64,000 bases of DNA from Candidatus Microgenomates bacterium (lineage in GTDB: Bacteria > Patescibacteriota > Microgenomatia > Daviesbacterales > UBA10151): assembly GCA_016182045.1 (NCBI GenBank), contig JACOYE010000009.1:1328-65327 (forward strand), read 5' to 3'. Numbering within the stretch: the stretch's first letter is position 1; every line of letters begins with the position of its first letter. The translations under genes and the position numbers were made by a program. The notes under the pieces were generated by a model. The model had not been told where the DNA came from. It searched no databases and saw only the letters and a program-made list of their open reading frames with translations. Positions 24,411 through 58,240 of this stretch are shown in pieces.

Positions 24411-24435
24411 TCCATTGATTTAAATCATTAAAACA
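24411..24435. promoter_or_regulatory. palindromic operator-like motif, copy 1 (TCCATTGATTTAAATCATTAAAACA)
   Basis: Contains the 12-bp perfect palindrome TGATTTAAATCA, 15 nt upstream of ATG 24450. Confidence 0.6.
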
Positions 24436-24449
24436 GATAGAATTAAAGC

Positions 24450-24902
24450 ATGGGACAAATATCTAAATATCCTATCTCTAAAGACGTGGCTGATAGAATT
24501 TTTGATGTATTTATTAAGTCTTTCATTAAAGTTAAAAATGACAAGGATGCTCAAATTTTGGCCAATGATTTATTCACACCTACTGAAAGAATCATGTTGG
24601 CAAAAAGACTTGCTATTGCCTTTTGTTTAATGCAAGGATATGAATATAGAGAAATTTCCAAACTCTTAAGAGTAAGCGTAACTACTGTTGCGTCTGTAAA
24701 TATGACATTAAAATACGGTAGCAATGGTTATAGAACCATACTTGAGCGGATTAATAAAGAAGAAAAGCTTGAGGATCTATTCAAAAATATCGCCGAGAAA
24801 GTTTTAGCAATGGGTTCTTATGGCAAAGGTAGTGGGACTTGGAGATACTTACGAGCAGAAGTTCAAAAGTCTAGGGATAAAAAATTAAAAAAGCCATTTT
24901 GA
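24450..24902 (+). CDS. TrpR-like YerC/YecD-family HTH protein
   Basis: TPTERIMLAKRLAIAFCLMQGYEYREISKLLRVSVTTV is the YerC/YecD signature. Confidence 0.65.
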   Translation: MGQISKYPISKDVADRIFDVFIKSFIKVKNDKDAQILANDLFTPTERIMLAKRLAIAFCLMQGYEYREISKLLRVSVTTVASVNMTLKYGSNGYRTILERINKEEKLEDLFKNIAEKVLAMGSYGKGSGTWRYLRAEVQKSRDKKLKKPF

Positions 24903-24927
24903 TCCATTGATTTAAATCATTAAAACA
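24903..24927. promoter_or_regulatory. palindromic operator-like motif, copy 2
   Basis: tccattgatttaaatcattaaaaca sits between the upstream stop codon and ATG 24933. Confidence 0.6.
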
Positions 24928-24932
24928 AATAT

Positions 24933-25709
24933 ATGGGAGTTATAAAGCCGCCATGGATTTCCAAAAGATGGTTTAATAAAGTTCCTTTTAATTACTGTGA
25001 TCATTTTGGTGATAAGAAGCAACTGGCCACTATCTGTAAAATTTGTGATGAAGAAATTAAAACAATAGAAAAATATAGAAGAGAAGGTAAGGATCCTTAT
25101 GTTTGGGAAAACGTTTTTAAAGAGGTAGCTAATGATTTGGCGGAATCAATAAGACTCCTTTACCAGGGAGCTAAGAAATGGGGAATAGATTTGGATGGCT
25201 TACCGGATGTGGAAGAACCTGAACTACCAAGGTCAGATACTTATCCAATTTATCGCTTAGTTACAAAATATAGTGATGGAGTAAGACAAATAATCAAAGA
25301 GCTTGAAGCTGTACCAATTGAGACCGATACTGAATTATTAGAAAAATCTGTTGACGTCTTAGCCCATTCTGAACACTACATTGTTGCTAAAATAGGCAGA
25401 GCCTTAAGTAGCAGATGGAGATGGAAAAATGACCCAATTTTGGATGATACCCATGATGATAAGACGTCAGCATTCCTGGCATTTGTTGCAATAGAGAGAA
25501 ATTCAAGAGCTCTTCTTGCACTCTCTAAACACAAACCCCTAGGGCACTTAAGAACAAAAAATCTTAAACTGGCAAAGTTGAGTTTAGAGCTTTGCAGTGT
25601 GATCAAAGAAGAATTTTTCCCTGAATATAAATTAAATTATGAAGAATTTGGAGTCGAAGAATTAGATGTTTACCTGAAACGCCTTGGATCCATTGATTTA
25701 AATCATTAG
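24933..25709 (+). CDS. hypothetical protein with an N-terminal Cys cluster
   Basis: CDHFGDKKQLATICKICDEE. Helical, no recognisable family. Its last codons are encoded by motif copy 3. Confidence 0.45.
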   Translation: MGVIKPPWISKRWFNKVPFNYCDHFGDKKQLATICKICDEEIKTIEKYRREGKDPYVWENVFKEVANDLAESIRLLYQGAKKWGIDLDGLPDVEEPELPRSDTYPIYRLVTKYSDGVRQIIKELEAVPIETDTELLEKSVDVLAHSEHYIVAKIGRALSSRWRWKNDPILDDTHDDKTSAFLAFVAIERNSRALLALSKHKPLGHLRTKNLKLAKLSLELCSVIKEEFFPEYKLNYEEFGVEELDVYLKRLGSIDLNH

Positions 25710-25713
25710 AACA
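25689..25713. promoter_or_regulatory. palindromic operator-like motif, copy 3
   Basis: tccattgatttaaatcattagaaca overlaps the stop codon of 24933..25709. Confidence 0.5.
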
Positions 25714-25756
25714 TTTATAGACAATCCTTATCTTACTTATTCTTAAAAGAATACTA

Positions 25757-26641
25757 TTAATGACCCAGTTTCTCTTCCCACCAAACTAAAAGAGCTGTGG
25801 CATTAAAGATGGAGGAATAAGTTCCGGAGATGATCCCTATCAATAAGGCCACCACAAACCACCTAATGGTTTCCCCACCAAAAAGTAAAAGAGCTACCAA
25901 AACAAATACCACTGTCAGTGATGTGTTTAGGGACCTACCAAGTGTTTGAACAACAGATATATTGACAACATCAATAAATTTCTTGCCAATATTTTTTATT
26001 AAATTTTCTCTAATTCTATCAAACACCACAATGGTATCGTGAACCGAAAAGCCAATGATAGTTAAAAGCGCTGTTACAAAAAGAGTATCCACTTCAACAC
26101 CTAAAAATTTTCCCAAAATGGCGAATGCTCCTACTACTATTAAAACATCATGCAATAATGCCGCAATGGCGGCAATTCCAAATCTTAGGGAAGAAGTAGG
26201 TTTGGGAACTTTTCTAAAGGAAAATGAAATGTATAAAACAATGGCAATACTAGTTAAAATTAAAGCATAAATTGCCTTCTGACGAAGTTCAGATCCGATC
26301 ACCGGCCCCACATTCTCCACCCTTCTTTCCTCTATCTCACCATAATTTTTTGCCAAGCTGGTCTTGATAGCATCAAGTTGATCCTGCTCTAAAGGTTTTG
26401 TTCGAACAATATAGATATTCTTGCCTGCACTTGTTATTTGCCCGATTCCCACTCCCTTCTCTTCCACCACCTTTTTTAAATCTTCTACTTTAACTTCCTT
26501 TTCGATCTTGTATTCCAAGAGTGCCCCACCGGTAAAATCGATCCCCAATTTTAAACCCCCACTCATAAGAAAATAAAGACCTGGCAAAATCATCAGAAAG
26601 GAAAATATGAAGTACCAAATTTTATATCTCATCAAGTTCAT
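25757..26641 (-). CDS. secF: protein-export membrane protein SecF
   Basis: SecF signature GIDFTGG and the SecD/SecF TM topology. Confidence 0.8.
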   Translation of the reverse strand: MNLMRYKIWYFIFSFLMILPGLYFLMSGGLKLGIDFTGGALLEYKIEKEVKVEDLKKVVEEKGVGIGQITSAGKNIYIVRTKPLEQDQLDAIKTSLAKNYGEIEERRVENVGPVIGSELRQKAIYALILTSIAIVLYISFSFRKVPKPTSSLRFGIAAIAALLHDVLIVVGAFAILGKFLGVEVDTLFVTALLTIIGFSVHDTIVVFDRIRENLIKNIGKKFIDVVNISVVQTLGRSLNTSLTVVFVLVALLLFGGETIRWFVVALLIGIISGTYSSIFNATALLVWWEEKLGH

Positions 26642-26967
26642 TTTTTTTCTTTTTGACCTTTTTGTATATCTTCATGAAGCTCATTAATCAACCCATCTGC
26701 TGCTTTTTTAATTTTTTCCTCAATATTGTCCACTTTCTCATTCAAAAATTGCCATATCTTATCATGATCATCTTCATGAACATGTTTTAAAAATAATCTT
26801 TTATCTTCCTCTGCAAGTTGCGATAAAATTGCATCCAATATGGTGTGATGCAAGCTGGAGTCTATTAAATGAGCAAGATGTATTCTCTCCTCATCAGTTA
26901 AATCAAGCTTATCTAACTCGGCGGTGATAGTTTCTATTTTAACAATATGACTATAAAACTGTTTCAT
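26638..26967 (-). CDS. hypothetical acidic helical protein
   Basis: 109-aa ORF overlapping the secF start by 4 nt. No recognisable family. Confidence 0.4.
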   Translation of the reverse strand: MKQFYSHIVKIETITAELDKLDLTDEERIHLAHLIDSSLHHTILDAILSQLAEEDKRLFLKHVHEDDHDKIWQFLNEKVDNIEEKIKKAADGLINELHEDIQKGQKEKK

Positions 26968-27869
26968 GCTTCAGACTCCACTTTAATAGGACCTAAAGGG
27001 ATCTTATCTTGCGGATCATCAATAAAAAAGTACAATACAGGACCTTTCCTCATACCATGTGACAACCCTAAAAAATGCATCACCTCAGGAGAACCCCCCA
27101 AATGCTTACCAGTCCACTCTGCTGGTCCGGCATCACCCACAACTGCCACCACAGACTGACCTGTTTTGGGATTTACCACCAGCATTTTTCTAAATTTAAA
27201 AAAATCTCTGTATTTGGGGAAATTTTCTGCAAAACCTGGAGCCAAAAAAGTTTGAATTGCCAAATAGAACCTTTCTCTTTCTTTGTCTGCTTGGGAAAAT
27301 TCCTGTTTGGAAGGAGCAAAATATCCCCAGGCTCCCAGTCCCGGAGCCATACCGGATGAGCCAAACATGGCCCAATCGGATGTGTTTTCGGCATGAGCAT
27401 ATAAATTATCCCCAGGATAGCGATAAAGATGTTGCTCTCCTCCTATTAAGCCGTAATTTCTATTTAACTTGATACCTTCTAACTGGGCTGTTACTTTCAT
27501 ACCAAAACTTTTAGACAATAAATCTGTAATTGCTTCCTCATCCTTGGGATCGAACGGCCGAACTTCTTTAGGTACTATCTCATTAAGTTGAGCGGCCAAC
27601 AATAAATTTTGATCAAAACCTTTTAAGATATCATCCCTACTAACAGCCAGATTAGCTGCCGGTAAGCTATGTTGTGGAGGAGCAGTTAAAAGCAGTAATC
27701 CACCCAAAGAGCCAAGAGCCAATTTTTGAGGGGAGATATTTTTTGACAGCCAATTCAAAGACTGGTGATGTTTTTCCCACAGCTTTTGTTGGATGTTGCG
27801 GTGTTTAGCCACCCATTTTTTACGCAATCTCTCATAGTGTGGCCTTTTAGATATAAATGATTTTGCCAT
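26964..27869 (-). CDS. membrane-anchored protein with RlpA-like double-psi beta-barrel (DPBB) C-terminal region
   Basis: N-terminal TM segment; C-terminal VVAVVGDAGPAEWTGKHLGGSPEVMHFLG resembles the RlpA / 3D-domain core. Confidence 0.4.
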   Translation of the reverse strand: MAKSFISKRPHYERLRKKWVAKHRNIQQKLWEKHHQSLNWLSKNISPQKLALGSLGGLLLLTAPPQHSLPAANLAVSRDDILKGFDQNLLLAAQLNEIVPKEVRPFDPKDEEAITDLLSKSFGMKVTAQLEGIKLNRNYGLIGGEQHLYRYPGDNLYAHAENTSDWAMFGSSGMAPGLGAWGYFAPSKQEFSQADKERERFYLAIQTFLAPGFAENFPKYRDFFKFRKMLVVNPKTGQSVVAVVGDAGPAEWTGKHLGGSPEVMHFLGLSHGMRKGPVLYFFIDDPQDKIPLGPIKVESEA

Positions 27870-27873
27870 ATTT

Positions 27874-29175
27874 TTATTTAATAATTAACCTTAGAAAGGT
27901 TCTTGTTACTACAATTGCTGTAAACATAGACACTAATACCCCAATTGCCAAAGTAACGGCAAAACCTCTAATGATGGATGTCCCAAACAAATACAAGATG
28001 ATGGCCGTAATTATAGAGGAAACATTTGATGCCCAAATTGAGGACCAAGCCCTTTTAAATCCCAAATCCAAGGCTAAACTCTTACTTTTACCCCACCTTA
28101 TTTCCTCTTTCATCCTCTCAAATATTAAAATATTGGCATCAACTGCCATGCCTATTGATAAAATAAATCCGGCAATTCCTGCCAAAGTTAAGGTAATGGG
28201 AGGTAGAATAAAAAGCCCTGTTTTAAAAATTGCCAAAACCAAACCAGTATAAATCAGCAATGCCATATCAGCAACTATCCCCAAAAATCCATAAAAAATG
28301 GCCATATAGATTATCACAATACCAAGCCCGATAATACCAGCCACCAAACTTTTGTTGACTGACTCCTGACCCAAAGTTGGCCCGATCAGTCTTTGCTCTA
28401 AAATTCTAATCGGTACAGGTAAGGCCCCCGCATTTAGCTGAATTACCAATTCTTTAGCTTCTTGACTGGTAAATTGTCCTGTAATCACGGCTGAGCCTCC
28501 CACAATTTCCTGCCTCACAGTAGGTGCAGAAATTGGTTGACCATCCAGAAAAATCGGTAGGGCATTGCCAATGTTTCTTCTGGTAATTTCGGTAAATTTT
28601 TCGGCACCATCAGCAGTAAATTCAATGGCAACTTGCGGGCCGGATCCTCCCCCTTCAACTGTTCCAAAAGTGACTTGAGCTTTTTTTAAATCCGCCCCAG
28701 TCAAACCAGTTTCCCTACTTAAAAATATTAAAGGAATTCCAGATTTAGTAGCTTCTGTTTCTTGAGCAGATAAAGTAGCTGGTAATTCTCTAAATTCCAG
28801 CTGTGCTGTTTTACCCACTAAATTTGCAGCAGCTGAGGCATCTTTGATACCGGGCAGTTCCACCAAAATTCTTCTTTCGTCCCTAACTTTAGAACTTTGA
28901 ACTACCGCTTCTGACACTCCGAATAAATTTACTCTTCTTTCAATCACTTTTCTGGCAGATTCTAACGCATCATCTCTGTTTTGAGAATCAATCTTGTCCA
29001 TCTGGGTACCTAAAATCAGTTGCGTACCACCTTGTAAATCCAGACCCAATTTTAGAGGAAAACTTAACTCAAACTGTTTATCTAAAATCCGGATAGTGGG
29101 TAATTTTGGAAGATTTATGATTAAAGACAATAGGGTTATACCAACGATAACCCACGGCAAAATCTTATACTTCAT
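27874..29175 (-). CDS. secD: protein-export membrane protein SecD
   Basis: LGLDLQGGTQL motif, periplasmic P1 head and SecD TM bundle. Confidence 0.8.
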   Translation of the reverse strand: MKYKILPWVIVGITLLSLIINLPKLPTIRILDKQFELSFPLKLGLDLQGGTQLILGTQMDKIDSQNRDDALESARKVIERRVNLFGVSEAVVQSSKVRDERRILVELPGIKDASAAANLVGKTAQLEFRELPATLSAQETEATKSGIPLIFLSRETGLTGADLKKAQVTFGTVEGGGSGPQVAIEFTADGAEKFTEITRRNIGNALPIFLDGQPISAPTVRQEIVGGSAVITGQFTSQEAKELVIQLNAGALPVPIRILEQRLIGPTLGQESVNKSLVAGIIGLGIVIIYMAIFYGFLGIVADMALLIYTGLVLAIFKTGLFILPPITLTLAGIAGFILSIGMAVDANILIFERMKEEIRWGKSKSLALDLGFKRAWSSIWASNVSSIITAIILYLFGTSIIRGFAVTLAIGVLVSMFTAIVVTRTFLRLIIK

Positions 29176-29178
29176 TTC

Positions 29179-29775
29179 TTAAGCAATCACCCCTTCTAAT
29201 AACTCGTCTTCATCCCCCAAAAGCATCACCTTTGGTTGAACCAACACCCTTAAGATAAACGGATCTCTTCTTTTGACTCTAAATTTGAATTCAGCTTCAT
29301 CCATAAAAGAATAGTTAATCTCTGATTCTTTCTTGGCCTGTTCATCGGCAATGATGGCTTGCAGCTCGGGCAAGACAATGCTACCTACCACCAGAAGATC
29401 AACGTCCTCGGCAGAAGATTCCCCACCTTTTAAAAACCTGGTCGATATAAATGCGAACTTTATTTTGCCCAGTTTGGCTTTACTCTTGACAAGATTACCA
29501 CCTAACCCAGAAGTTTTTGCCACCATCCCCAAAAGCTCTCGGTAAAAAATATAATCCTTGCGAAATCGATATAATCTTCTATTGGCTCTCCATTCGGAGG
29601 AGACCACTCCATATTTCTCCATCCTTCCTAGCTCTCGTCGTACTGCATTAATCTCCTCTGAAACCCGGCGAACTATCTCACGCACATGAAATAACTGTTG
29701 GGGAGAAGTTAAAAAAAGCTGCAGTATTTTTACCCGGACTCTTGAGATAAATAATTCTTCTAACATTTTCACCAC
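29179..29775 (-). CDS. winged-helix transcriptional regulator with nucleotidyltransferase-like C-terminal region
   Basis: N-terminal wHTH (SRVRVKILQLF...VREIV). The C-terminal region carries a DVDLLVVGS pattern. Confidence 0.4.
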   Translation of the reverse strand: MVKMLEELFISRVRVKILQLFLTSPQQLFHVREIVRRVSEEINAVRRELGRMEKYGVVSSEWRANRRLYRFRKDYIFYRELLGMVAKTSGLGGNLVKSKAKLGKIKFAFISTRFLKGGESSAEDVDLLVVGSIVLPELQAIIADEQAKKESEINYSFMDEAEFKFRVKRRDPFILRVLVQPKVMLLGDEDELLEGVIA

Positions 29776-29790
29776 CTTTCTAGGCAGCGT

Positions 29791-30984
29791 TTAATAATTA
29801 ACCTTGGATCCCTCCGGGACAGTTTGAATCCAAATTTGCCCTCTGTTAAATTCAATCTCTTTACCATCCTCATCCACATACTTAGTTCTGGCGGTTCTGG
29901 AATTTTTAATCCATCTGCCTTCTATCACATTTCCATCCTGAAAAATTAAAACCCGACCTTGTCCAGTTGTTTTATAAAGCAGATGCACATTACCGGGATA
30001 ACCGTCATTGGCATTGGACTCCCGCATAAATTGCACCACAATATTTTTGGCAGTTAATTGTTGTTTATTATTCAGATCTATATGATCCTCACCATTCTTC
30101 CTTTTATATGAATTGGTGGCTGCATCATAATTCCACTCCACCTGATAATTTGGTTGGCTTTCCCAGAAATTAACCGTGATTTTGGAAGTTGTACCACCAC
30201 CCTTATCTTCCTTAAATTTCCAAGGAGCAAAATTCTTGTCCCATCTAATATTTGCAGAATCTGTGGCTACCCAACCTCTTTTGGCTCCCACCTCCCAAAG
30301 TTTAGCTGTTGTGGAATACATGGTATGTTCTGTGGCAACTGGATGACCCAATCTTTGATAATCGCGCCAAAATACAGGAAATCCTATACTAAATTGGTTT
30401 AGGTCTTTAATCCCATATCTTATTATTTGTCCCAGAGCATCAGCGGGACCTGGAGTGTTGGCTCCCCCAACATGGGCATACAGAGCATCATATTCAGACA
30501 GCCAATCAAGATAATAAGTCCTTGCTGATCTAACAGGGCCGACCTGAACATCTGACAGATTACAATAAAATAGTGCCATAAAGCGGGTAATACCACCTTC
30601 TGCTACAGCCTCATAAATAATATCAGCAGCTGTCAGGCCAGATTGTGGCCGTGCCTCGGTGTGATTTTCAATCATCACCGCCAAAGGACGTCTCTTTTCC
30701 CAAAACTCCTTGGCCTTTTTGGTATGTAACTCTCCATCCAAGGGACAGCCTTCCGTTCTGGGTTCATTTGGATCTTCTTCAAAAGCAGCAGTAGGTCCAG
30801 GTAAGACAGCTTTAAAATCTGCACCACCGTTTCTAACAGAAGGTGCCAGTTTATTAAAGATGGAATAGGATAAAGAGGTGGAGGTACTGAAGGCCACCAC
30901 TGCCAGGATGATTAAGACTAAAATCTTTTGTAAATTTGTTAACTCCCCAAAGGTTTCGGAAAAATTATTTATGACATTATTCAT
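29791..30984 (-). CDS. DUF3048 (YerB-like) lipoprotein/secreted protein
   Basis: PLAVMIEN...ARPQSGL..ADIIYEA.AEGGITRF is characteristic of DUF3048. Confidence 0.65.
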   Translation of the reverse strand: MNNVINNFSETFGELTNLQKILVLIILAVVAFSTSTSLSYSIFNKLAPSVRNGGADFKAVLPGPTAAFEEDPNEPRTEGCPLDGELHTKKAKEFWEKRRPLAVMIENHTEARPQSGLTAADIIYEAVAEGGITRFMALFYCNLSDVQVGPVRSARTYYLDWLSEYDALYAHVGGANTPGPADALGQIIRYGIKDLNQFSIGFPVFWRDYQRLGHPVATEHTMYSTTAKLWEVGAKRGWVATDSANIRWDKNFAPWKFKEDKGGGTTSKITVNFWESQPNYQVEWNYDAATNSYKRKNGEDHIDLNNKQQLTAKNIVVQFMRESNANDGYPGNVHLLYKTTGQGRVLIFQDGNVIEGRWIKNSRTARTKYVDEDGKEIEFNRGQIWIQTVPEGSKVNY

Positions 30985-31447
30985 CTTTTTGCCTCATCGC
31001 CTCATCAATCACCTGTTGTTCCTCTTTGGAAAACTGATATTTTTCAGCCTTTCCTTTAATAACCGGCTTGGCAAATACTCTGGTACTAGATCTGGCATGC
31101 AAACTGGTCACAATAATTCCTGTCCCTCCGTTATCTAATAAGGCAACTGAAAAACTCTGATCCCCTCCTGTATCTTCATAAGGGTTATAGCGTAAAAGCT
31201 CTACCTTTTGTATATGTATCAAGCTTTGTTTATCAAGCTGAAATAATTTACCTTCCAGTTCACCCAACTGATCCTTAAAATTTGTAACTGCCTTAGTTAT
31301 CTCTTCAAATTTTTTCCTGATATCTCTTTCGCCTGATTTTGGAAAAAGAGATTTCAAAAAACCTCTTAATTGCCAGATTAAAAAACTCAAAACCAAAAGC
31401 CAAACAAAAACTGCCAAAAGCAGCAACCAAACCCAATCCGAATACAT
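30977..31447 (-). CDS. DUF4446-family membrane-anchored protein
   Basis: N-terminal TM segment; RYNPYEDTGGDQSFSVALLD...TSLH matches DUF4446. Confidence 0.55.
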   Translation of the reverse strand: MYSDWVWLLLLAVFVWLLVLSFLIWQLRGFLKSLFPKSGERDIRKKFEEITKAVTNFKDQLGELEGKLFQLDKQSLIHIQKVELLRYNPYEDTGGDQSFSVALLDNGGTGIIVTSLHARSSTRVFAKPVIKGKAEKYQFSKEEQQVIDEAMRQKDE

Positions 31448-31615
31448 AAGTTACTCTTTTAATATACTGGATGAATACAAACTTTGTCAACCACAACTAT
31501 GTAAACTAGTTGTGGTCAATGAAGGATTTTTAAAAGCAAAATGGAGGCTGTACTAAACAAATCCTGCGTAAATCTTCCGATCCGGGATCGGAATAGATAT
31601 AACGAAACGGTATTC

Positions 31616-32017
31616 TTAAAGTAATTTAACAAATTTAAATTTGGTTTGTTTGATAAACTGTTCATCTGCTGTTATCAGTATTGTCCCATTAGCTTTGGCC
31701 ACAACTGCATATAACATATCATAAACAGAAGTTTTATATTTTTTAGCCAGTCTTGCTGCTTCTTTTACATCATCCTCTGTAGGGTGGTATATTTCAATTT
31801 GTGTTTTATAAATTATGGTTATAGACCTTGTAACTGCTCGTTGAGGAATAGTTGCTTTCGTAGCCAAAGTATTTGCCACTTCATATAAAAGAAGGTCTAA
31901 AGAGATGATTCGCTCAAGTCCATCTGAATGATTTTGAAATATTTCTTTTACCTTTATATGACCTTCTTCGTAGGGTAAAACTAGCTTATTAGCTACTGAT
32001 GCATCAATTACAATCAT
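31616..32017 (-). CDS. vapC: PIN-domain toxin VapC
   Basis: MIVIDASVA... with PIN-domain acidic residues. Overlaps the upstream antitoxin by 4 nt. Confidence 0.7.
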   Translation of the reverse strand: MIVIDASVANKLVLPYEEGHIKVKEIFQNHSDGLERIISLDLLLYEVANTLATKATIPQRAVTRSITIIYKTQIEIYHPTEDDVKEAARLAKKYKTSVYDMLYAVVAKANGTILITADEQFIKQTKFKFVKLL

Positions 32018-32304: not shown

Positions 32305-32394
32305 TATATTTTGTCAACCCAACGATTAGTTTTATCTCATAGTTTTAGGTTCAATTGGTGCTTGACAAGCGTGCATCGTGCGTGGTAGGCTCAA

Positions 32395-32739: not shown

Positions 32740-32758
32740 GAGGAGGTGATATTACTTT

Positions 32759-32896: not shown

Positions 32897-32930
32897 TTTA
32901 AGTGGTGAATGCATTCATCATTTCGATAGT

Positions 32931-36948: not shown

Positions 36949-38286
36949 ATGAAGATTGCCATATTGGGTGCTGGTTTTACCGGACTTTCTGCTGCCTTTA
37001 GACTTTTACAAAAAGGTTATCAGGTGACTATTTTTGAGAAGGAAGAAAGTTCAGGCGGATTGGCCGTGGGGTTTAAATTAGCCAACTGGCAGTGGAGTTT
37101 AGAAAAAGGTTATCATCACTGGTTTACCAATGATGATTCCATTTTGCATTTGGCCAAAGAGATAAATCACCAGGTAATCATTGAACGTCCTAGTACAGAT
37201 GTTTTTACTCATGGTAAGCGTTTACCTTTTGATAGTGCGACCACCCTGATAAATTTTAGATACCTACCAATTATTGACAGAGTCCGGGTAGCTTTAATCT
37301 TGGCATTTTTAAAAATACTACCAAGCCATCATTTACTTGATGGTAAAAAAGCTTTACCTTGGATCAGAAAATTTATGGGGGAAAAATCCACCAAACTTAT
37401 CTGGAACCCCCTTTTTACTTCTAAATTTGGCAAGTTTAGTGAACAGATTGCTCTCACCTGGTTTTGGGCCAGAATTAAAAAAAGAACCCCTTCTTTGGCT
37501 TATCCCCAAGAAGGATTTCAAGCTTTTGCCGATCATCTAGGTAAAGAGATTAAAAAAATGGGTGGGGAAATCTTGCTAAATACTCAAGTTGTCGAATTGG
37601 TAAGTAGAAATAACGATGTTGTTGTTAAAACTACCAACTACCCGCTTCGCGACTTTCGTCGACGCAGGCGCGAGGCGAGCCAACTACCAACTACCAACTA
37701 CTATTTCGACAAAGTAATAGTTACTTTACCCTCTCCTATCTTTACAAAAATTGCCCATGGACTGCCCAAGCAATACACGGATAGAATAACCTCAATTCCT
37801 CATCTGCATGCTCAGGTATTAATCCTGATTTTAAACAAACCTTTTATGGATAAAACCTATTGGTTAAATATTACAGAAAAGGATTTCCCTTTCTTGATCT
37901 TGGCAGAACATACCAACTTTATGGATTCCAAATACTATGGCGGACAACATATCTTATATATAGGCAATTATCTGCCGCCTGATCATCCGTATCTTAAGAT
38001 GACTGTGAAAGAATTATTAAAAGTTTTTGACCCTTTTCTTAAAAAGATAAATCCAAACTACCAACTACATACTACAAACTACCAACTATTCATTGGTCCT
38101 TTTGCCCAGCCCATTGTCACAGTTGACTACCCAAACTTGATTCCATCATTTACAACTCCACTAAAAGGAGTTTATCTTGCCAACTTAGACATGGTCTATC
38201 CTTGGGATAGGGGAACAAATTATGCTGTTGAGCTGGGAGAGAAAATTGCTGATATGATAGATAAAGATCATGCCAAAGTTAAATAA
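36949..38286 (+). CDS. FAD-dependent oxidoreductase (amine-oxidase / phytoene-desaturase-like Rossmann fold)
   Basis: Dinucleotide-binding motif IAILGAGFTGLSAA...IFEKE. First gene of the GT-C cluster. Confidence 0.65.
   Translation: MKIAILGAGFTGLSAAFRLLQKGYQVTIFEKEESSGGLAVGFKLANWQWSLEKGYHHWFTNDDSILHLAKEINHQVIIERPSTDVFTHGKRLPFDSATTLINFRYLPIIDRVRVALILAFLKILPSHHLLDGKKALPWIRKFMGEKSTKLIWNPLFTSKFGKFSEQIALTWFWARIKKRTPSLAYPQEGFQAFADHLGKEIKKMGGEILLNTQVVELVSRNNDVVVKTTNYPLRDFRRRRREASQLPTTNYYFDKVIVTLPSPIFTKIAHGLPKQYTDRITSIPHLHAQVLILILNKPFMDKTYWLNITEKDFPFLILAEHTNFMDSKYYGGQHILYIGNYLPPDHPYLKMTVKELLKVFDPFLKKINPNYQLHTTNYQLFIGPFAQPIVTVDYPNLIPSFTTPLKGVYLANLDMVYPWDRGTNYAVELGEKIADMIDKDHAKVK
37641..37681. repeat. 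GC-rich palindromic element inserted in-frame in the FAD-oxidoreductase gene
   Basis: cccgcttcgcgactttcgtcgacgcaggcgcgaggcgagcc is ~75% GC in an AT-rich gene and encodes PLRDFRRRRREAS. It shares end motifs CCCGCTTCGC...GCGAGGCGAGCC with 54102-54130 and 22752-22774. Confidence 0.7.
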
Positions 38287-50306: not shown

Positions 50307-50311
50307 AAAAT

Positions 50312-50584: not shown

Positions 50585-51979
50585 ATGAAAAATAACTTAC
50601 CAGAAGTTTATCCTTTTGTAAAGCCCCAAATAATCTTGCTGTATAATCTATATATGCTAGTTAAAAAACATTTGGGTATTTTATTAGTATTCATCTTTTT
50701 CTTTTCAATTTTTACCTATCATACTTTATATAGACATTGGACTTATAATTCCCATGCTTTTGATTTAGGTATCTATACTCAAGTTATTTACCTTTATAGT
50801 CAAGGGCTAACCCCTCTAAGTACTTTAAAACACATGAATATCTTAGGCGATCATTTTGGAGTAATTCTATTTTTATTATCACCAATTTATAAATTATTTC
50901 CCTTTCCAGAAGCCTTACTTGTTATCCAAGCTTTATTTGTCTCACTTAGTGGAATATTCATCTATCTTATCGCTTTGGATAAACTTAAAGATAAACTAAA
51001 GACTATTTTAATAACTGGGGTTTATCTTTCTTTTTCTGGAATTTTAACTGCTGTAAATTTCGATTTTCACCTGGCAACTCTCTCGGTTTTACCTTTATCA
51101 ATAATGCTTTACAGTTGGTATTTTAAAAAGTGGAAACTCTATTTTATAAGCTTATTTTTAGGCCTACTTTTTAAAGAAGATGTACCTCTTTTTATAGTAG
51201 GATTAGGGTTATTCGCAATTTTAAAAAAGCAAAGGCGTTTGGGAGTTTTAACTGTAATATTTGGATTACTAAGTTATCACATTATTAAATACCAAATCAT
51301 GGGTAGAATTTCTCCGGGTGCAGAAAATGCCTATATCAATACTGTATCTTTTTCTTCAATTTCTTCAATGTTTGACTCTCCAACTAAAATTCATACCTTG
51401 AAAAGTTTGTATGGGCAGTTTCTTTTCCTACCATTTCTGTCTCTCTTAAGCTGGCTAACTATAATTCCATACCTATTTATCAGATTCTCATCCACACAAC
51501 CTCACTACTGGGGCTTAAATTTTCACTATAATGCCAATTTGGCACCATTTTTGGCAACCAGTGCAATTTTTGTTTTATCAAAAATTCAAATCCCCAGATA
51601 TCAAATGATTGCTTATTTAATCGTAGCTTTAACTACGGAGAATTTATTTTTTAACAAATTTGTTTCTAATACCCTACAGTTTAATATCCAAGCTACCCAA
51701 CGTTTTAATTACATAAATAATGCTTTACAAACCTTTCCAACCGAAGCAGCTATCTCTGCTCAATCTCCTATAGTCCCTCATTTATCTAACAGAAACAAGG
51801 TATACCTTTATCCAGAAGTTTTAGATGCAGATTATATTATTGTGGATGAAAAATTAAACCACTATCCAATGAAGGTTAATGAATTTGAAGATAGAATTGC
51901 TTCCATTAAAACCTCATCAGAATGGATTTTAGAAAAACAAGTTAATAGTCTACTTATATTTAGGAGGGTAAGGTCATAG
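50585..51979 (+). CDS. polytopic membrane protein (DUF2079-like; possible GT-C glycosyltransferase)
   Basis: 464 aa and ~12 TM helices. Family assignment is tentative. Confidence 0.35.
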   Translation: MKNNLPEVYPFVKPQIILLYNLYMLVKKHLGILLVFIFFFSIFTYHTLYRHWTYNSHAFDLGIYTQVIYLYSQGLTPLSTLKHMNILGDHFGVILFLLSPIYKLFPFPEALLVIQALFVSLSGIFIYLIALDKLKDKLKTILITGVYLSFSGILTAVNFDFHLATLSVLPLSIMLYSWYFKKWKLYFISLFLGLLFKEDVPLFIVGLGLFAILKKQRRLGVLTVIFGLLSYHIIKYQIMGRISPGAENAYINTVSFSSISSMFDSPTKIHTLKSLYGQFLFLPFLSLLSWLTIIPYLFIRFSSTQPHYWGLNFHYNANLAPFLATSAIFVLSKIQIPRYQMIAYLIVALTTENLFFNKFVSNTLQFNIQATQRFNYINNALQTFPTEAAISAQSPIVPHLSNRNKVYLYPEVLDADYIIVDEKLNHYPMKVNEFEDRIASIKTSSEWILEKQVNSLLIFRRVRS

Positions 51980-53306
51980 TGGTATCTGAAAATCTTGTTT
52001 CTCTGATGGCAGTCACTTTCACAGCACCCGGCACCATCACTTCTTTGGAAATTCTATCTAAAATATCATGAGTTAATTTTGGCAGTTCATCATCCGAGAC
52101 TTTATCTGGAAAAACTACCACCCTGACCTCTCTTCCAGCTTGCAATGCAAAAGCCTTATCCACTCCCTCAAATGATGTGGCAATTTTTTCAATATCTGAA
52201 AGTCTTTTAATATAATCTTCTACATTTTCATGTCTGGCCCCTGGCCTTCCACCAGAAATAGCATCAGCAATATAAACTAGGATTGATTCTACCGAAGAAA
52301 AAGGTTGATCTTCATGATGCTCTGCAATACAATTAACCACTTCCTGAGGCATTCCAAATTTTTTGGCAACCTGCACTCCTTTCTCAACATGAGTCCCTTC
52401 ATCTCCTTCTGTAACTACCTTACCCACATCATGAAGTAAACACCCAAGTCTAACCACATTAGCATCTGCCCCGATCTCTTTGGCCAGAGCTACCCCAATT
52501 CTGGTTTCCTCCAGAGTATGTTGAATTAAATTCTGTCCGAAAGAAAATCTATACTTGAATCGTCCCAATATTTTTACTAAATCAACAGGCAGATTATAAA
52601 CTCCGGCATCTTGACAGAGTTTTTCACCTGTCTCCAGCATGATTTTTTCAAAATCTTGTTCAGTTCTTTTGACAATCTCCTCAATTCTTTGGGGTTGAAT
52701 TCTACCATCTGCAATTAATCTTTCCAAAGAAACTTTGGCAATCTCTCTTCTGACAGAATCAAAAGAAGATAAAATTAAACTGTCGGGAATCTCATCATCC
52801 ATGATTACATCCACTCCTGTGGCTTGCTCAAAAGTCCTGACATTTCTGCCCTCTTTGCCAATAATCCTTCCCTTAATCTCCTCATCAGGCAATTTAACTC
52901 TTGAAGTGGTAAACTCAGAGATATAGTCTGTAAAACCATGTACCATCGTATCAGCTAAAATTTCTTTGGCCTTTTCATCGGCTGTGAGTTTGATCTCTTC
53001 CTCCACCTCTTTTATTTTCTTGGAAATTTCAACCGCTAAATCTTTTTCAATTTGTTCTAAAAGAATTTTCTTTGCTTCATCCGACTGCATAGAAGATGCT
53101 TTCTCCAGTTTAAAGACAAGATCTTTTCGGATCTTTTCTAATTGTTCCAATCTCTCATCAATTAATTTTTGCTTTTCCCCGATTTGCCTCTCTCGTTCTT
53201 CTAAAATACCTTCTCTTTTGGCAAGCTCTGCTTCACGATGTGAAAAGTCTCCACCAGACAAAGTAGTAGAAGGACTAATATTTTTAGGACCAAATGTACG
53301 TTGCAT
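51960..53306 (-). CDS. rny: ribonuclease Y (KH plus HD domains)
   Basis: KH domain GRIIGKEGRNVR and HD motif LLHDVGK. No N-terminal TM segment in this ORF. Confidence 0.75.
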   Translation of the reverse strand: MQRTFGPKNISPSTTLSGGDFSHREAELAKREGILEERERQIGEKQKLIDERLEQLEKIRKDLVFKLEKASSMQSDEAKKILLEQIEKDLAVEISKKIKEVEEEIKLTADEKAKEILADTMVHGFTDYISEFTTSRVKLPDEEIKGRIIGKEGRNVRTFEQATGVDVIMDDEIPDSLILSSFDSVRREIAKVSLERLIADGRIQPQRIEEIVKRTEQDFEKIMLETGEKLCQDAGVYNLPVDLVKILGRFKYRFSFGQNLIQHTLEETRIGVALAKEIGADANVVRLGCLLHDVGKVVTEGDEGTHVEKGVQVAKKFGMPQEVVNCIAEHHEDQPFSSVESILVYIADAISGGRPGARHENVEDYIKRLSDIEKIATSFEGVDKAFALQAGREVRVVVFPDKVSDDELPKLTHDILDRISKEVMVPGAVKVTAIRETRFSDTTMTLPS

Positions 53307-53423
53307 AAATTTTGAAGAATCAAAAAGATACTTCGATTACTCGAAGTTTTGAGGAGTTAAAATTTTAAAGAATACTTTCTTCATATTTTTGCTCACTCTT
53401 AATCTGATCCTCTAAATACTATT

Positions 53424-54077
53424 TTACTTCTTTTTATTCAGATTTTCAACCACTTCTTTAACCACCTCATATTCAAAACCTCTTCTCATCAAAAACTCAT
53501 ATGCTTTTTTGCGAAATTCCATGGAGTCCAGATTTTTCCATTTACTGGCCTTCCGCTCCAAAGCACTTTCTGCCAACTCAGTTTGATTACCATCTCCTTT
53601 CAATGCCTCTATGATTATGTTCCGATCGACACCTTTTTGTAGAAGCTCTGCGGTGATTGCTCGATTACCTTTATATTTTGATATCCGCTTTGATCTAACC
53701 CATTCTTTAGCAAATTTCTCATCATCCACCATTCCTTTCTGTCGCAGTTTCTGAATTAATAGTTCCACAACAACTTCTGAAATCTCCTCTTTATCTTTAA
53801 CTTTTCTTTTAAAAGATAGACTTCTTAAATAGTTTCTGACTTCTTTTTCAGAACGGGGTCTAATATTCCATAACCTGTACATTCGTTCCATCAGCTTCCC
53901 AACTTCCGCCTCAAACAACAGCTTTTCCACATCTGATTCCTCAAGTAACTTCCCAGGGACTAAACGGTATTCCACTACCAAATCCTCATCTGCCCCAAAA
54001 GCAAAAGCACCATCTAGATAAATATTAAAACGTCGTGGATTTTTCTTTTGAGACTCTACTGAAGTAATTTTGGACAT
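53424..54077 (-). CDS. recX: regulatory protein RecX
   Basis: Three-repeat helical RecX architecture, downstream of recA. Confidence 0.65.
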   Translation of the reverse strand: MSKITSVESQKKNPRRFNIYLDGAFAFGADEDLVVEYRLVPGKLLEESDVEKLLFEAEVGKLMERMYRLWNIRPRSEKEVRNYLRSLSFKRKVKDKEEISEVVVELLIQKLRQKGMVDDEKFAKEWVRSKRISKYKGNRAITAELLQKGVDRNIIIEALKGDGNQTELAESALERKASKWKNLDSMEFRKKAYEFLMRRGFEYEVVKEVVENLNKKK

Positions 54078-55186
54078 TAAGCAGCAACTTCTTCAATTAT
54101 ACCCGCTTCGCCCGCGAAGCGAGGCGAGCCAGTTTCTTCCTCTTTTCCAACAACCATTTCTTTCCCTTCCTTTTGTTTACCCCAGGCTTCCCTTATTTCT
54201 TTTTCCAAATTTAGGGCCTCTTTCTTATTGGCTTTTAAGTAATCTATTGCAGCTTGTCTGCCCTGACCCAACATGATTTCATTCCATTTTATAAAGGCTC
54301 CTGACTTTTGTAGAATTCCAAGCTCCAATCCCACATCCAAAAGTTCTCCTTCGTGAGAAATTCCATTTTCATCCATATCAAATTCGGCAATTCTAAATGG
54401 GGGAGCCACTTTATTTTTGACAACCTTAACTCTGTGTCTTGAACCAACCACTGTGTCTCCCACTTTGATATTTTCAATTTTTCTAATATCTAGTCTAACT
54501 GATGTATAGAATTTTAAAGCTAATCCACCTGGAGTAGTCTCCGGGTTCCCAAACATCACTCCAATTTTTTGTCTTAACTGGTTAGTAAAAATAATAATCG
54601 TATTTGTATTTGATACTGCTCCGGTTAATTTTCTTAAAGCCTGAGACATCAGTCTTGCCTGCATACCCATCACAGCATCTCCCATCTCCCCTTCAAGCTC
54701 TGCCCTAGGCACCAAAGCTGCAACTGAGTCTATTACCAATACATCAATTCCGCCAGATCTGATCAAAGCCTCTGCAATTTCTAAAGCCTGCTCGCCAGTA
54801 TCTGGTTGGGAAATTAAAAGATCATCTAAATTAACACCTATCTTTTGTGCTCTTTGGGGATCCAAAGCATGCTCTGCATCAATAAATGCTGCCACTCCAC
54901 CTCTTTTTTGTGCCTCAGCTATAACATGAAGACAGACTGTGGTTTTTCCGCCTGCCTCTGGGCCAAAAACTTCAATAATCCTGCCTCTTGGCAAACCTCC
55001 AACTCCTAAAGCAAGATCTAAAGCGATAGAACCTGTGGGGATAACTTGGGTAGTCAGTTTCTCTGCTCTTTCACCCAACCGCATAATAGAACCAGTACCA
55101 TATTGCTTTTGGATCTGTTGCATGGCCGCGGCAATTGCAGCTTTACGGGCCTCATCATTGGGTTGTGCCATAATCCTATTATACAA
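54077..55186 (-). CDS. recA: recombinase RecA
   Basis: Walker [10 protein letters not shown] and the L1/L2 loop regions. The C-terminal tail contains a GC-rich element insertion. Confidence 0.9.
54102..54130. repeat. GC-rich palindromic element in-frame in the recA C-terminal tail
   Basis: cccgcttcgcccgcgaagcgaggcgagcc encodes SPRFAGEAG within the RecA tail. Confidence 0.7.
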
Positions 55187-55302
55187 AATTTAAATCCTAC
55201 CACAATACCCCAAAATCTACATGTATTGTTGTATGGATACATCAATCATTGTGTCGTAGGGTAGAGCAGAATATAAAAACCTGGTAAAATAGAAAGCTGT
55301 GA

Positions 55303-55374
55303 CGGAGACTAGTTCATCGGTAGAACGCTCGCATGGGGTGCGAGAAGTACGGGGTTCAATTCCCCGGTCTCCGA
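55303..55374 (+). tRNA. tRNA-Pro (anticodon GGG)
   Basis: Manual fold: acceptor stem CGGAGAC paired with GTCTCCG (the C1-G72 pair typical of bacterial tRNA-Pro), then U8 A9; D-arm GTTC-ATCGGTA-GAAC; anticodon stem CTCGC paired with GCGAG around loop ATGGGGT; T-arm CGGGG-TTCAATT-CCCCG; discriminator A. No CCA is encoded. Confidence 0.8.
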
Positions 55375-55381
55375 CTTTTAT

Positions 55382-56158
55382 ATGAAACTAATCTCATTAA
55401 ATACCTGGGGTGGAAAAGTTTACAAACCACTTATAAAATTTATCCAAGATTACTCAAAAGATACGGATATCTTTTGTTTTCAGGAAGTTTTCTACACTAA
55501 CTCCAATATTAAAGAGGATTTTGGTTTTAGAACCAATTTACTTAATGAAATAAAGAAAATTCTAAAAGATCATATCTGCTTTTTTGCCCCCACCATAGAC
55601 AATTATCTGGTGGGAAGCTTTAAAAAAGAGTTTACAAATTATCATCTATCTTCGGGGTTAGCAATCTTTATTAATAAAAATCTTCAGGTAAAATCAGCTG
55701 GAGATTTTTTTGTTTTTAGACAAAAAAATGATTATGAGTTAGGAAATTACAATACCATGCCCAGAAATATTCAATTTATCAATTTTACTAAAAGCAATAA
55801 AAAATTCACTATTTGTAATGTGCATGGAATTTGGGTAGATAAAGATAAGGGCGATACTCCTTCCAGAATAAAACAATCAGAAATGATACAGAAATTTTTA
55901 GATAACGAGGCGGGAGAGAAAATAGTGTTAGGAGATTTTAATTTAACATTAAATACTGAAAGTATAAGGATTTTAGAAGAAAATTTAAGGAATTTAATCA
56001 AGGAATATAAAATTTTATCTACCAGAAGTAAGTTCTTCCCCGGAGATGAAAGGTATGCTGATTTTACTCTAGTCTCATCAGGGATCAAAGTGATCTATTT
56101 TCAAGTTCCTAATATTGAAGTATCTGATCATCTTCCAATGATACTGGAATTTTTATGA
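55382..56158 (+). CDS. endonuclease/exonuclease/phosphatase (EEP) family protein, paralog 1
   Basis: CFQEV, GDFN and SDH motifs of the EEP fold. Confidence 0.7.
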   Translation: MKLISLNTWGGKVYKPLIKFIQDYSKDTDIFCFQEVFYTNSNIKEDFGFRTNLLNEIKKILKDHICFFAPTIDNYLVGSFKKEFTNYHLSSGLAIFINKNLQVKSAGDFFVFRQKNDYELGNYNTMPRNIQFINFTKSNKKFTICNVHGIWVDKDKGDTPSRIKQSEMIQKFLDNEAGEKIVLGDFNLTLNTESIRILEENLRNLIKEYKILSTRSKFFPGDERYADFTLVSSGIKVIYFQVPNIEVSDHLPMILEFL

Positions 56159-56219
56159 ATGATTGTTCCAATGTTGATGAAATCCATCTGTTTAGGATAG
56201 AATCTACCAATGGAGTGAT

Positions 56220-56849
56220 ATGAAACAGTCCTTGCGAATAATCGATATTTCTTTACCCATCGGCGAGAAAATGGTAATTTTCCCCAACAACCCTCCTGTT
56301 AAATTCAAACCTCTGAGAACACCTACTACCTACATTTCTGAGATCACATTTGGATCTCACACAGGAACTCATATCGATGTTCCCAGGCATATTTCTAAAA
56401 AGGGAATCGGTGTAGACAAAATTAATTTAGATCAACTTATTGGACCCTGTAGGGTTTTAGACATGACCCATTGTAAAGTATCTATCACTACTGATGATTT
56501 TAGAAAAGAAGATATCCAAAAGCAAGAACGAATTTTAGTTAAAACTAATAATTCTCTAAAGGGTTTTAAAAAGTTTTATCCAGATTATATTTATCTTGAT
56601 GGAGATGCGGCAGAATTTTTGGCTTCTAAAAAAATTGTCCTTTTTGGCATTGATTCTTTATCAGTCAAAAAGCAAGGTTCACCTGATACAAGACCACATA
56701 CAGAGCTTTTAAAAAACAATATTGTCATTATAGAAGGCCTAGATTTATCAGAAGTTACTCCGGGCCAATATGATATTTTCTGTCTACCTTTAAAACTAGT
56801 CGGATTTGATGGGGCTCCTGCTAGAACAATTCTTATAAATTCAACATGA
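56220..56849 (+). CDS. cyclase-family protein (kynurenine-formamidase-like)
   Basis: HTGTHIDVPRH metal-binding motif. Confidence 0.7.
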   Translation: MKQSLRIIDISLPIGEKMVIFPNNPPVKFKPLRTPTTYISEITFGSHTGTHIDVPRHISKKGIGVDKINLDQLIGPCRVLDMTHCKVSITTDDFRKEDIQKQERILVKTNNSLKGFKKFYPDYIYLDGDAAEFLASKKIVLFGIDSLSVKKQGSPDTRPHTELLKNNIVIIEGLDLSEVTPGQYDIFCLPLKLVGFDGAPARTILINST

Positions 56850-57631
56850 AGCTTATTTCTTTAAACACCTATGGTGGTAAATATTTTAAACCACTGATCA
56901 ATTTCATTAGACAGTTTGAAAGTGATATTGACATATTTTGTTTTCAAGAAGTTTTCAGTACAACTTCCAACTTCAAACAATTTCCAGAATATAGAGCCAA
57001 TTTACTGGAAGAAATATCGAAAATCTTACCAGAGTTTAATTACTTTTTTAATCCAGTAATGGAAGAATTGGATACCTATGCAAACCCGGTAGATTTCGAT
57101 TTAAAGCATGGCCTGGCAATATTTGTAAAAAAGGATATTTTATTAAAAAATTATCAAACCTTCTTTCTTTATAAAGATAGTGTTGTCAAAATAATTAAAA
57201 AAGATTTTTCAGATATCCCTGTTAATATCCAATTGCTAAGTTTTATAAAAAAAGATACAGAATTTATAGTTTGTAATTTTCATGGTACCGCTTATCCCGG
57301 ATCTAAGTTGGATACTTCTCAAAGAATTGAACAATCACAAAAGATTATGGATCTTCTTAAAGAAAAGGTTGGTGCAAAAATAGTTGTGGGAGATTTTAAC
57401 TTGATGCCCAATACACAAAGTGTCAATATCCTAGAAAAGGATTTGATAAATTTAATCAAGGAATACAATATAGACAAAACCAGATCTAGATTGTCTCCAT
57501 TTTATGGAAAATCTGATTTTCAAAAATTTGCAGATTATACATTTGTCACAAATGATGTTAATGTTGAAAAATTTGAAGTTCCTGAAGTGGAAATCTCTGA
57601 CCACCTACCAATGATTCTTGAATTTTCCTGA
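56846..57631 (+). CDS. EEP family protein, paralog 2
   Basis: Paralogous to 55382-56158, with the same motif set. Overlaps the cyclase stop by 4 nt. Confidence 0.7.
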   Translation: MKLISLNTYGGKYFKPLINFIRQFESDIDIFCFQEVFSTTSNFKQFPEYRANLLEEISKILPEFNYFFNPVMEELDTYANPVDFDLKHGLAIFVKKDILLKNYQTFFLYKDSVVKIIKKDFSDIPVNIQLLSFIKKDTEFIVCNFHGTAYPGSKLDTSQRIEQSQKIMDLLKEKVGAKIVVGDFNLMPNTQSVNILEKDLINLIKEYNIDKTRSRLSPFYGKSDFQKFADYTFVTNDVNVEKFEVPEVEISDHLPMILEFS

Positions 57632-57655
57632 ATAATTAACTATTATTTAACATCT

Positions 57656-58210
57656 ATGGCTGTTGAGTCTACAATGCTCGCTCTGGGAACAAAAGCTCCT
57701 AATTTTAATTTAGTGGATGTAGTATCCAATCAACCGATCTCTCTTGAAACATTTAAAGATAAAAAGGCTTTACTTGTCATGTTTATCTGCAGACACTGCC
57801 CTTATGTTAAACATGTGCAAAATGAGTTAACCAAGCTAGGAAGGGATTACCTGGATAAAAGTATTGGCATTGTTGCAATATCAGCAAATGATCCAGCCGC
57901 ATATCCAGAGGATGCGCCAGAATCTTTAAAAGAACAGGCAGAGGAATTAGGATTTACCTTTCCTTATTGTTTTGACGATACCCAGACTACCGCTAAATCT
58001 TATACAGCAGCATGCACTCCTGATTTCTTTCTATTTGATGAAGATAGAAAACTTGCATACAGAGGTCAACTTGATGACTCACGACCAAACAGTGGCATCC
58101 CGGTCACTGGAAAAGATTTAAGAGATGCCATAGATGCTCTATTAAATAACCAACCTATCAACCCTGATCAAAAACCCAGTATGGGATGCTCTATTAAATG
58201 GAGATCTTGA
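57656..58210 (+). CDS. thioredoxin-fold redoxin (AhpC/TSA-like thiol-disulfide oxidoreductase)
   Basis: Active-site CRHCP within a thioredoxin fold. Confidence 0.6.
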   Translation: MAVESTMLALGTKAPNFNLVDVVSNQPISLETFKDKKALLVMFICRHCPYVKHVQNELTKLGRDYLDKSIGIVAISANDPAAYPEDAPESLKEQAEELGFTFPYCFDDTQTTAKSYTAACTPDFFLFDEDRKLAYRGQLDDSRPNSGIPVTGKDLRDAIDALLNNQPINPDQKPSMGCSIKWRS

Positions 58211-58215
58211 ATTGT

Positions 58216-58240
58216 TCCATTGATTTAAATCATTAGAACA
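58216..58240. promoter_or_regulatory. palindromic operator-like motif, copy 4
   Basis: tccattgatttaaatcattagaaca sits between the redoxin stop codon and the acyP ATG at 58254. Confidence 0.6.

Follow-up and report, generated by a model that had tools for sequence, protein, structure and literature searches.

A gene-bracketing palindrome as the putative operator of an autoregulated YerC/TrpR-like repressor in the Microgenomates

E. coli TrpR, which acts at trpR, trpEDCBA, and aroH, is an autoregulated repressor whose operator overlaps the promoter; TrpR operators hold tandem dimers on repeated half-sites (PDB 1trr). YerC of B. subtilis is HisR, a repressor of the same family that binds 20-bp palindromic operators, also at its own gene (PMC9413887). 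The present analysis concerns a palindromic element that recurs in a 64,000-nt stretch of DNA from a Candidatus Microgenomates bacterium (contig JACOYE010000009.1 of assembly GCA_016182045.1, positions 1,328–65,327; hereafter the window) and that stands at both ends of a yerC-like gene (24450..24902, + strand); the product of this gene, a 150-aa helix-turn-helix (HTH) protein of the YerC/YecD type of the TrpR family, is the presumed binder. We consider it probable, from the placement and conservation of the sites, that the element is the operator of this YerC-like protein, which would repress its own gene from sites that bracket it. It would then be an autoregulatory operator of the TrpR family whose consensus is new, found in a phylum that has been little studied and laid out, unusually, as a bracket around a gene; neither this motif nor such a bracketing arrangement was found described in the literature. 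Transcription factors are very scarce in bacteria of the candidate phyla radiation (CPR), whose regulation is almost unknown. Labels of the form L0xx denote the contigs or loci of relatives and metagenomes that were compared with the window.

The YerC-like protein shares with HisR the YerC/YecD family, palindromes of ~20 bp with key bases 4–8 nt in from the outer edge, and candidate sites at its own gene (PMC9413887). The two systems differ in consensus (cacTTTAnnnnnnTAAAgtg vs. CCATTGATTTAAATCAWTRG), in targets (HisR acts on histidine biosynthesis and uptake genes, none of which adjoins the sites here), in protein size (150 aa with an extension carrying GKGSGxWRYL, as opposed to ~100 aa without it in YerC proteins), and in the bracket, no such arrangement having been reported for HisR. 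TrpR has the same fold and resembles the putative system in its autoregulation through an operator that overlaps the promoter; the TGWTYY elements of the present motif, repeated ~8 nt apart, also resemble the tandem half-site layout, and by analogy with TrpR operators the 28–32 bp unit probably holds more than one dimer. However, sequence identity to TrpR is ~23%, the operator sequence is different, and TrpR has no second operator at its own 3′ end. Neither the TrpR or HisR consensus nor amino-acid biosynthesis targets were found at the sites; what was found is a dyad of at least 20 bp, overlap with the gene's own promoter or start in 11/11 loci, and base changes that track a DNA-reading residue of the protein.

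In the window, the 25-mer TCCATTGATTTAAATCATTARAACA starts at 24411, 24903, 25689, and 58216, always on the + strand and with 0 mismatches. These four identical copies had been noted in a preliminary description made from the letters of the window, and none is expected by chance: 100 shuffles of the window gave 0 matches, even with ≤3 mismatches. The exact 12-bp palindrome TGATTTAAATCA has four occurrences, all within the 25-mer copies. Aligned with 60 nt per side, the copies cease to be similar at ~28 nt; because their flanks are dissimilar, a longer repeat built around the motif is excluded for this genome. Random recurrence and membership in a larger repeat element, which the preliminary description had itself named as fatal to its reading, are thus countered by the empty shuffles and the unlike flanks. 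The palindrome that it reported stands, but the real symmetric unit is longer: an imperfect palindrome of 28–32 bp, (t)TGTTCCATTGATTT|AAATCATTAGAACA(a), in which the 28-mer TGTTCCATTGATTT|AAATCATTAGAACA is made up of an inner palindrome (TTGATTT|AAATCAt) and outer arms (TGTTC/GAACA). Scored with a position weight matrix (PWM) that was built, like the dyad statistics below, on 32 distinct sites, the four units (all + strand) are site 1, at the 5′ end of the yerC-like gene (24408..24435; 41.1 bits); site 2 (24900..24927; 43.6 bits), the first 3 bases of which are the yerC stop codon TGA and which ends 5 nt before the ATG of a gene for a Cys-cluster protein; site 3, the terminal site after that gene (25686..25713; 41.8 bits); and site 4, the most symmetric copy, between an AhpC-like gene and an acylphosphatase gene (58213..58240; 44.8 bits). 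The gaps between motif and start codon, earlier given as 15–20 nt, are 14 nt for the yerC-like gene, 5 nt for the Cys-protein gene, and 13 nt for the acylphosphatase gene. The statement that each copy directly follows the preceding stop codon holds for copy 2 (right after the yerC TGA) and copy 4 (5 nt after the upstream TGA) but not for copy 1, which lies 156 nt past the cca stop.

Across the 32 sites, complementarity about the dyad is 91–100% at positions ±2–6, ±8, and ±11; a conserved G/C pair at ±13 is complementary in 78% of them, and positions ±7, ±9, and ±10 are asymmetric in a consistent fashion. Complementarity exceeds the expectation from column composition at the dyad centre only, and independent symmetric co-variation was therefore dropped as evidence of base pairing; the symmetric bases are conserved and do not co-vary, which is the signature of a protein site rather than of a base-paired stem. 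An RNA element, i.e., a hairpin at messenger RNA (mRNA) ends that serves as terminator, stabilizer, or processing site, is extremely improbable. Several copies do lie at gene 3′ ends, and folding energies of −9 to −13.7 kcal/mol are obtained for the perfect palindromes of L087; copies 1–3 of the window, however, fold at −0.5 to −2.7 kcal/mol (z +0.2 to +0.5), no better than shuffled sequence, there is neither a U-run nor a G+C-rich stem, three positions are consistently asymmetric, and transcription is predicted, for the window's clade, to start downstream of the 5′ copy (see below). The reading as a hairpin or terminator was rejected on the folding energies.

The pattern that is conserved around the motif is a bracket. 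In all 11 yerC-like loci, which come from contigs encoding homologues and from scans of public metagenomes for the 19-mer core and which span 100% to 30% protein identity, a site is found at both ends of the gene: the 5′ site ends 1–16 nt ahead of the start codon, the 3′ site lies −8 to +3 nt from the stop codon in 10/11 loci (+14 in L025), and the centres of the two sites are 462–512 bp apart. The 28-mer opens with the stop codon TGA in eight loci. The 3′ site is also seen in two partial loci, L010 and L057; in the 19-mer core scan of genome contigs, which returned mostly single chance matches and two CPR loci, L010 was the informative match and L016 is probably a chance one. The context is recJ-cca-yerC-secF in most genomes, the rpsL-rpsG…fusA-tuf operon in L089, and yet others in L088 and L086; since the bracket is kept in these three kinds of context, it goes with the yerC unit rather than with the neighbouring genes. 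The regions on either side of yerC vary between genomes. Convergent secF directly follows the yerC 3′ site in L028, L069, L025, and L057, a different minus-strand gene intervenes in L010, and a convergent gene lies after the 3′ site in 6/13 loci, where this site therefore cannot be an upstream operator for the downstream gene. The earlier picture of a three-gene regulon with upstream operators is not conserved and gives way to the bracket: the Cys-protein gene has sites in the window and in one other genome only (L030), and comparison with orthologues shows the motif to be absent at the acylphosphatase gene in three relatives. On these sequence comparisons, any wider regulon is not conserved between genomes, and the other copies are lineage-specific.

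A promoter scan identified a putative sigma-70 promoter of the yerC-like gene at 24415..24443 (+ strand), consisting of a −35 hexamer TTGATT (24415–24420), a 17-nt spacer, and a −10 hexamer TAGAAT (24438–24443), with 6 nt to the ATG. The −35 hexamer is the left half-site of site 1, which covers the −35 and the spacer. The same layout is found in 7/8 loci of the window's clade (window, L024, L025, L028, L029, L069, and L088): the −10 hexamers 17 nt after TTGATT read TAGAAT, TAAAAT, TATAGT, TACAAT, TATAAT, or TATTAT, and the start codon follows 6 nt past the hexamer (8 nt in L069, with TAGAAT); L087 has only a degenerate hexamer, AAGAAA. The geometry TTGATT-17-TAnAAT-6-ATG implies a sigma-70 promoter that would give a leaderless mRNA, with the transcription start predicted from this spacing. 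A Shine-Dalgarno-like sequence precedes only 10 of the 51 long open reading frames (ORFs; ≥150 aa) of the window, and many of the 51 have a −10-like TAnnnT hexamer 6–9 nt before the start codon, a sign that leaderless mRNAs are probably common in this organism. In L089 a TTGACA-17-TATCAT promoter lies just upstream of the site, which covers the start region, and in L086 a perfect TTGACA stands 17 nt before the central TTTAAA of the site, which thus lies over the −10 position. Overlap of the 5′ site with the core promoter in varying registers is what is expected of a repressor operator. The motif is not simply a promoter, an idea that was rejected because a good −10 at the right spacing is found at the yerC 5′ copies only; copies 2–4 of the window and the 3′ copies of L010, L028, and L029 have none. 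An extended −10 inside the motif (TGaTTTAAA) was also dropped, the hexamer having neither of two key bases, A at position 2 and T at position 6.

The identity of the YerC-like protein, as given in the preliminary description, is borne out by family thresholds and by fold. The protein scores 53.7 bits against PF01371 (cutoff 27) and 47.9 against TIGR02531 (YerC/YecD; cutoff 42.2), while its score against the TrpR equivalog TIGR01321 is 24.2, below the cutoff of 67.25, so that it is a YerC-type protein and not TrpR proper. Its sequence matches in the PDB are 3frw, 3kor, and 3g1c. The AlphaFold2 (AF2) model has a predicted local distance difference test (pLDDT) score of 70.6 overall and of 78–87 in the core, and Foldseek matched it to 3kor, 3frw, 3g1c, and E. 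coli TrpR with template modelling (TM) scores of 0.75–0.82 (0.64–0.82 as TMt); as modelled, the protein is a TrpR-like all-helical fold with an HTH. A C-terminal extension of ~45 aa carries the conserved GKGSGxWRYL. The recognition helix, RVSxTTIAxVN, is kept across the whole range of overall identity (100% to 30%) and in this parallels the motif core.

Residue 78, at the start of the recognition helix, connects protein and site. Eight genomes with a TT·AA site centre have T there; L029 and L087, in each of which both sites have TC·GA, have G, and L089, in which both sites have TC·AA, has P; in L088 the residue is A, with a TT·AA centre. By pairwise identity, the variant genomes L029, L087, and L089 are not mutual nearest relatives. 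In a set of 47 homologues, 18 have T at this residue, 13 have P, and 7 have G. The co-variation of residue 78 with the centre bases, the strongest single clue, points to the YerC-like protein as the binder. The earlier proposal that a dimeric HTH regulator, most simply the autoregulated YerC-like protein, binds the motif thus draws support from the family assignment, the bracketing of 11/11 loci, the promoter overlap, and the co-variation, whereas its regulon part does not hold.

That a different regulator (e.g., of the Crp/Fnr family) binds the palindrome and yerC is merely a target appears very unlikely, in spite of a real resemblance: the core TTGATTTAAATCAt matches the FNR box TTGAT-N4-ATCAA at 13/14 positions, perfectly so in L024, and in papers on E. 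coli the identical 12-mer is given as an FNR site. Its placement at the promoter does not agree with such a regulator, the site centre lying ~28.5 bp upstream of the predicted start and not at −41.5 or −61.5, and conservation reaches ±13–14 bp, which is wider than a Crp/Fnr site. Among the window ORFs (the window only, not the rest of the genome) no cyclic-nucleotide-binding (cNMP) protein and no Crp-type HTH protein was seen. The two-sided linkage to the TrpR-like gene in 11/11 loci and the residue-78 co-variation would, moreover, be left unexplained.

If the YerC-like protein is the binder, its presence on site 1 would cover the −35 and spacer, block transcription of its own gene, and so shut off its own expression (autorepression). 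The two sites, ~490 bp apart, would work together: they might form a repression loop that encloses the ~450-bp gene, or they might be roadblocks that isolate yerC, and any gene inserted behind it, against read-through from either direction. Binding, repression, and looping or roadblock are all steps that we infer. The arrangement recalls OL-cI-OR of lambda and O1-O2 of lac, in which a regulated or regulator gene is likewise enclosed by a pair of cognate sites separated by a few hundred bp to a few kb; the present case differs in that looping is here only conjectured, the second site is fused to a stop codon, and both protein family and site anatomy are unrelated. If functional, the bracket would let a very small genome loop or insulate a gene in little space. 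Extra copies would put a few lineage-specific genes (those of the Cys protein, the acylphosphatase, and possibly a phosphoglucomutase) under the same control.

The first of these genes, that of the Cys-cluster protein (24933..25709, + strand), lies between sites 2 and 3. It has no Pfam family; its protein family is widespread in Microgenomates, has neither a Pfam nor an NCBIfam model, and has C22, H24, and C38 among its invariant residues, with C35 nearly so. The AF2 model (pLDDT 92) is mostly a helical bundle and had no significant fold match in the PDB. The closest homologue (L030, 79% identity) is bracketed likewise, with an upstream neighbour other than yerC; the distant homologues in L031 and L032 are without the motif. 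In the L030 homologue the stop codon is the TGA within the site, whereas in site 3 of the window the embedded TGA is GGA, so that the ORF runs 7 codons into the motif and, as previously noted, ends in a copy-3-encoded GSIDLNH tail (residues 253–258 are disordered in the AF2 model). Were TGA read as glycine, both proteins would end in a GSIDLNH tail; this reading was rejected, as long ORFs are intact under translation table 11, and several end in TGA.

The Cys-protein gene is absent at this position in L028, L069, L025, L057, and L010; because the first four have secF right after the yerC 3′ site, the gene together with one site looks like an insertion. L088 (9959–11250) has a site-yerC-site-gene-site array like that of the window with a different middle gene, for a DNA-alkylation-repair protein; its third site lies 2 bases past the stop codon of that gene and shares the variant half-site TGTTTT with the second. 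These arrangements are what would be expected if the palindromes were crossover sites of a site-specific recombinase (Xer/dif-like or integron-like), a gene plus a site being a cassette and the YerC-like protein no more than an accessory factor. An 11-6-11 division of the 28-mer is possible, TGTTCCATTGA-TTTAAA-TCATTAGAACA, with slightly different arms as in Xer dif and Acinetobacter pdif sites, which are likewise 28-bp imperfect palindromes and bound single genes in arrays (PMC6449649, PMC13141974); the variable flanks of yerC also accord with this. Nevertheless, we judge the explanation improbable. Direct repeats would excise the gene they enclose, yet the yerC bracket has been kept at a single locus through deep divergence. 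Orientation is direct at all sites, which keep the same asymmetric positions, unlike the alternating orientation of dif modules; the sites are chromosomal and conserved around one gene, and their arms are unlike XerC or XerD arms. No tyrosine or serine recombinase domain is found in the 51 window ORFs of ≥150 aa (0/51). With 4–5 sites in 64 kb and a cumulative GC skew that runs monotonically through the locus without an extremum, the element is not the chromosomal dif. A recombinase would also leave unexplained the residue-78 co-variation of the HTH, and the solo insertion of site 4, described next, is unlike a product of site-specific integration.

Site 4 lies between an AhpC/redoxin-like gene (57656–58210) and the acylphosphatase gene (58254..58535, + strand), a lineage-specific candidate target. 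Three relatives have no motif there, and their acylphosphatase gene overlaps the one before it; in relatives such as L090 and L091 the overlap is 13–19 nt, and the two genes are probably translationally coupled. Alignment with L090 and L091 shows a 47-nt insertion in the window (58214..58260, + strand) that holds site 4 together with a new acylphosphatase start codon and that, as read from the sequence, would uncouple the two genes; the old acylphosphatase ATG (58196–58198) now opens a 13-codon ORF that ends inside the motif. A second case is seen in L055 (1416–1440), where CSNDLNQWNK, encoded by an in-frame motif, takes the place of a variable 35–45-residue segment of orthologues (compare 36949–38286 of the window) in an amine-oxidase-like gene of an oxidase/PMT_2/DUF2298 envelope cluster. 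In L076 a membrane glycosyltransferase-like gene carries CFNDLNQWNK in a loop; no homologue of this membrane protein was found among the compared loci. In the forward direction the motif has a stop codon in all three frames (TGA, TAA, TAA/TAG), and in reverse one frame is open. An in-ORF copy in L050 was discarded as a chance 19-mer match; its other positions fit poorly, and the segment around it is normal for a reverse transcriptase.

Such insertions bring up the possibility that the element is a small mobile palindrome of the repetitive extragenic palindromic (REP) or miniature inverted-repeat transposable element (MITE) kind, its association with genes being incidental or secondary. Besides the two insertion polymorphisms (the 47-nt insert and the L055 loop copy) and the in-ORF copy of L076, this is suggested by the near-identity of copies within a genome, by the presence of the same 25-mer in lineages whose YerC proteins are only 43% identical, and by another palindromic repeat that has entered the cca coding sequence in the window. 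A gene flanked by cognate palindromes further recalls REPtrons, in which a single-copy gene for a REP-associated tyrosine transposase (RAYT) is flanked by REPs that are also found elsewhere and show signs of spread by insertion. We nonetheless think a mobile repeat improbable. The flanked gene encodes an all-helical TrpR fold with the HTH of a repressor, not an HUH transposase, and the copies are few, not hundreds: exact copies number one each in two contigs of 289 kb and 368 kb, a low number that fits a transcription-factor site and not a dispersed repeat. Apart from the dyad, no terminal inverted repeats can be seen at the 47-nt insert; a target duplication is not clearly visible there, and none could be cleanly delimited at the insertions. 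The site keeps its place with respect to the yerC promoter and stop codon. PHROGs and PADLOC scans gave nothing useful as to a phage or plasmid link, and matches to viral contigs are of the chance type only.

A doubtful further reading is that the 28-bp site is a self-spreading operator module: the repressor gene would lie between two copies of its own binding site, additional ready-made units of ~30–50 nt being pasted into gene junctions and even, in the one open frame, into coding sequence; each insertion would then recruit or insulate a gene in a single step. In a related version, the sites would double as cassette boundaries, with genes moving in and out of the repressor's bracket. In either case, an insertion-type origin of the extra copies bears on how regulons gain members.

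Several observations weigh against the interpretation as an operator of the YerC-like protein. Plain autoregulation needs no 3′ site, yet conservation of the site is equal at the two ends of the gene, and the gene beyond the 3′ site is convergent in 6/13 loci. A terminator-like hairpin precedes the site in L045 and L049, where the ATG directly adjoins the site and no promoter could be recognized. The residue-78 co-variation rests on three variant genomes, and the core also fits the FNR consensus. The site-gene-site-gene-site arrays of the window, L088, and L030 resemble cassette arrays, and new copies arise by insertion (the 47-nt insert; the loop replacement in L055), not by point mutation. 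An operator model has no explanation for the 3′ site fused to the stop codon, for the recurrent arrays, or for the insertion of ready-made units, and it is these that keep a recombination or cassette site and a small mobile palindrome alive as rivals. What the operator interpretation offers is a concrete, testable pairing of a conserved Microgenomates regulator with a DNA site, including a predicted specificity rule that relates residue 78 to the central base pair and a predicted leaderless promoter.

A candidate fifth, weaker site in the window, TGCTCTAATGATTCGTATCATTTAAATA (61372..61399, strand not assigned), scored 22.9 bits against a maximum of 11.2 in 20 shuffles and lies 74 nt upstream of a phosphoglucomutase gene (59877–61298, minus strand). 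Other sites from metagenomes lie ahead of secreted-protein genes (L045, L049/L083), between glycosyltransferase genes (L044), and between convergent genes (L047); the genes near sites, in the window and in the other loci together, comprise those of YerC, the Cys protein, acylphosphatase, secreted proteins, and glycosyltransferases. In L045 (reverse strand, 1–82), L049 (8825–8896), and L083, the 5′ regions of yerC and of a secreted-protein gene share a module of ~65 nt, which consists of a terminator-like hairpin (GCCGGAT...ATCCGG plus a T-run), the 28-mer, and AG-ATG.

An unrelated G+C-rich repeat, CGTCATTGCGAGCGAAGCGAAGCAATCTT, is present near the yerC-like gene as a perfect 29-nt inverted pair (23216–23244, + strand, and 24327–24355, − strand). 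The copy inside cca is part of an in-frame palindromic insert that encodes ...SVIASEAKQSSTEDRHVASAPRDDK..., and the other is an arm of a MITE-like element of ~95 nt (24262–24355) between cca and yerC; a remnant-like sequence is also found after yerC in L028.

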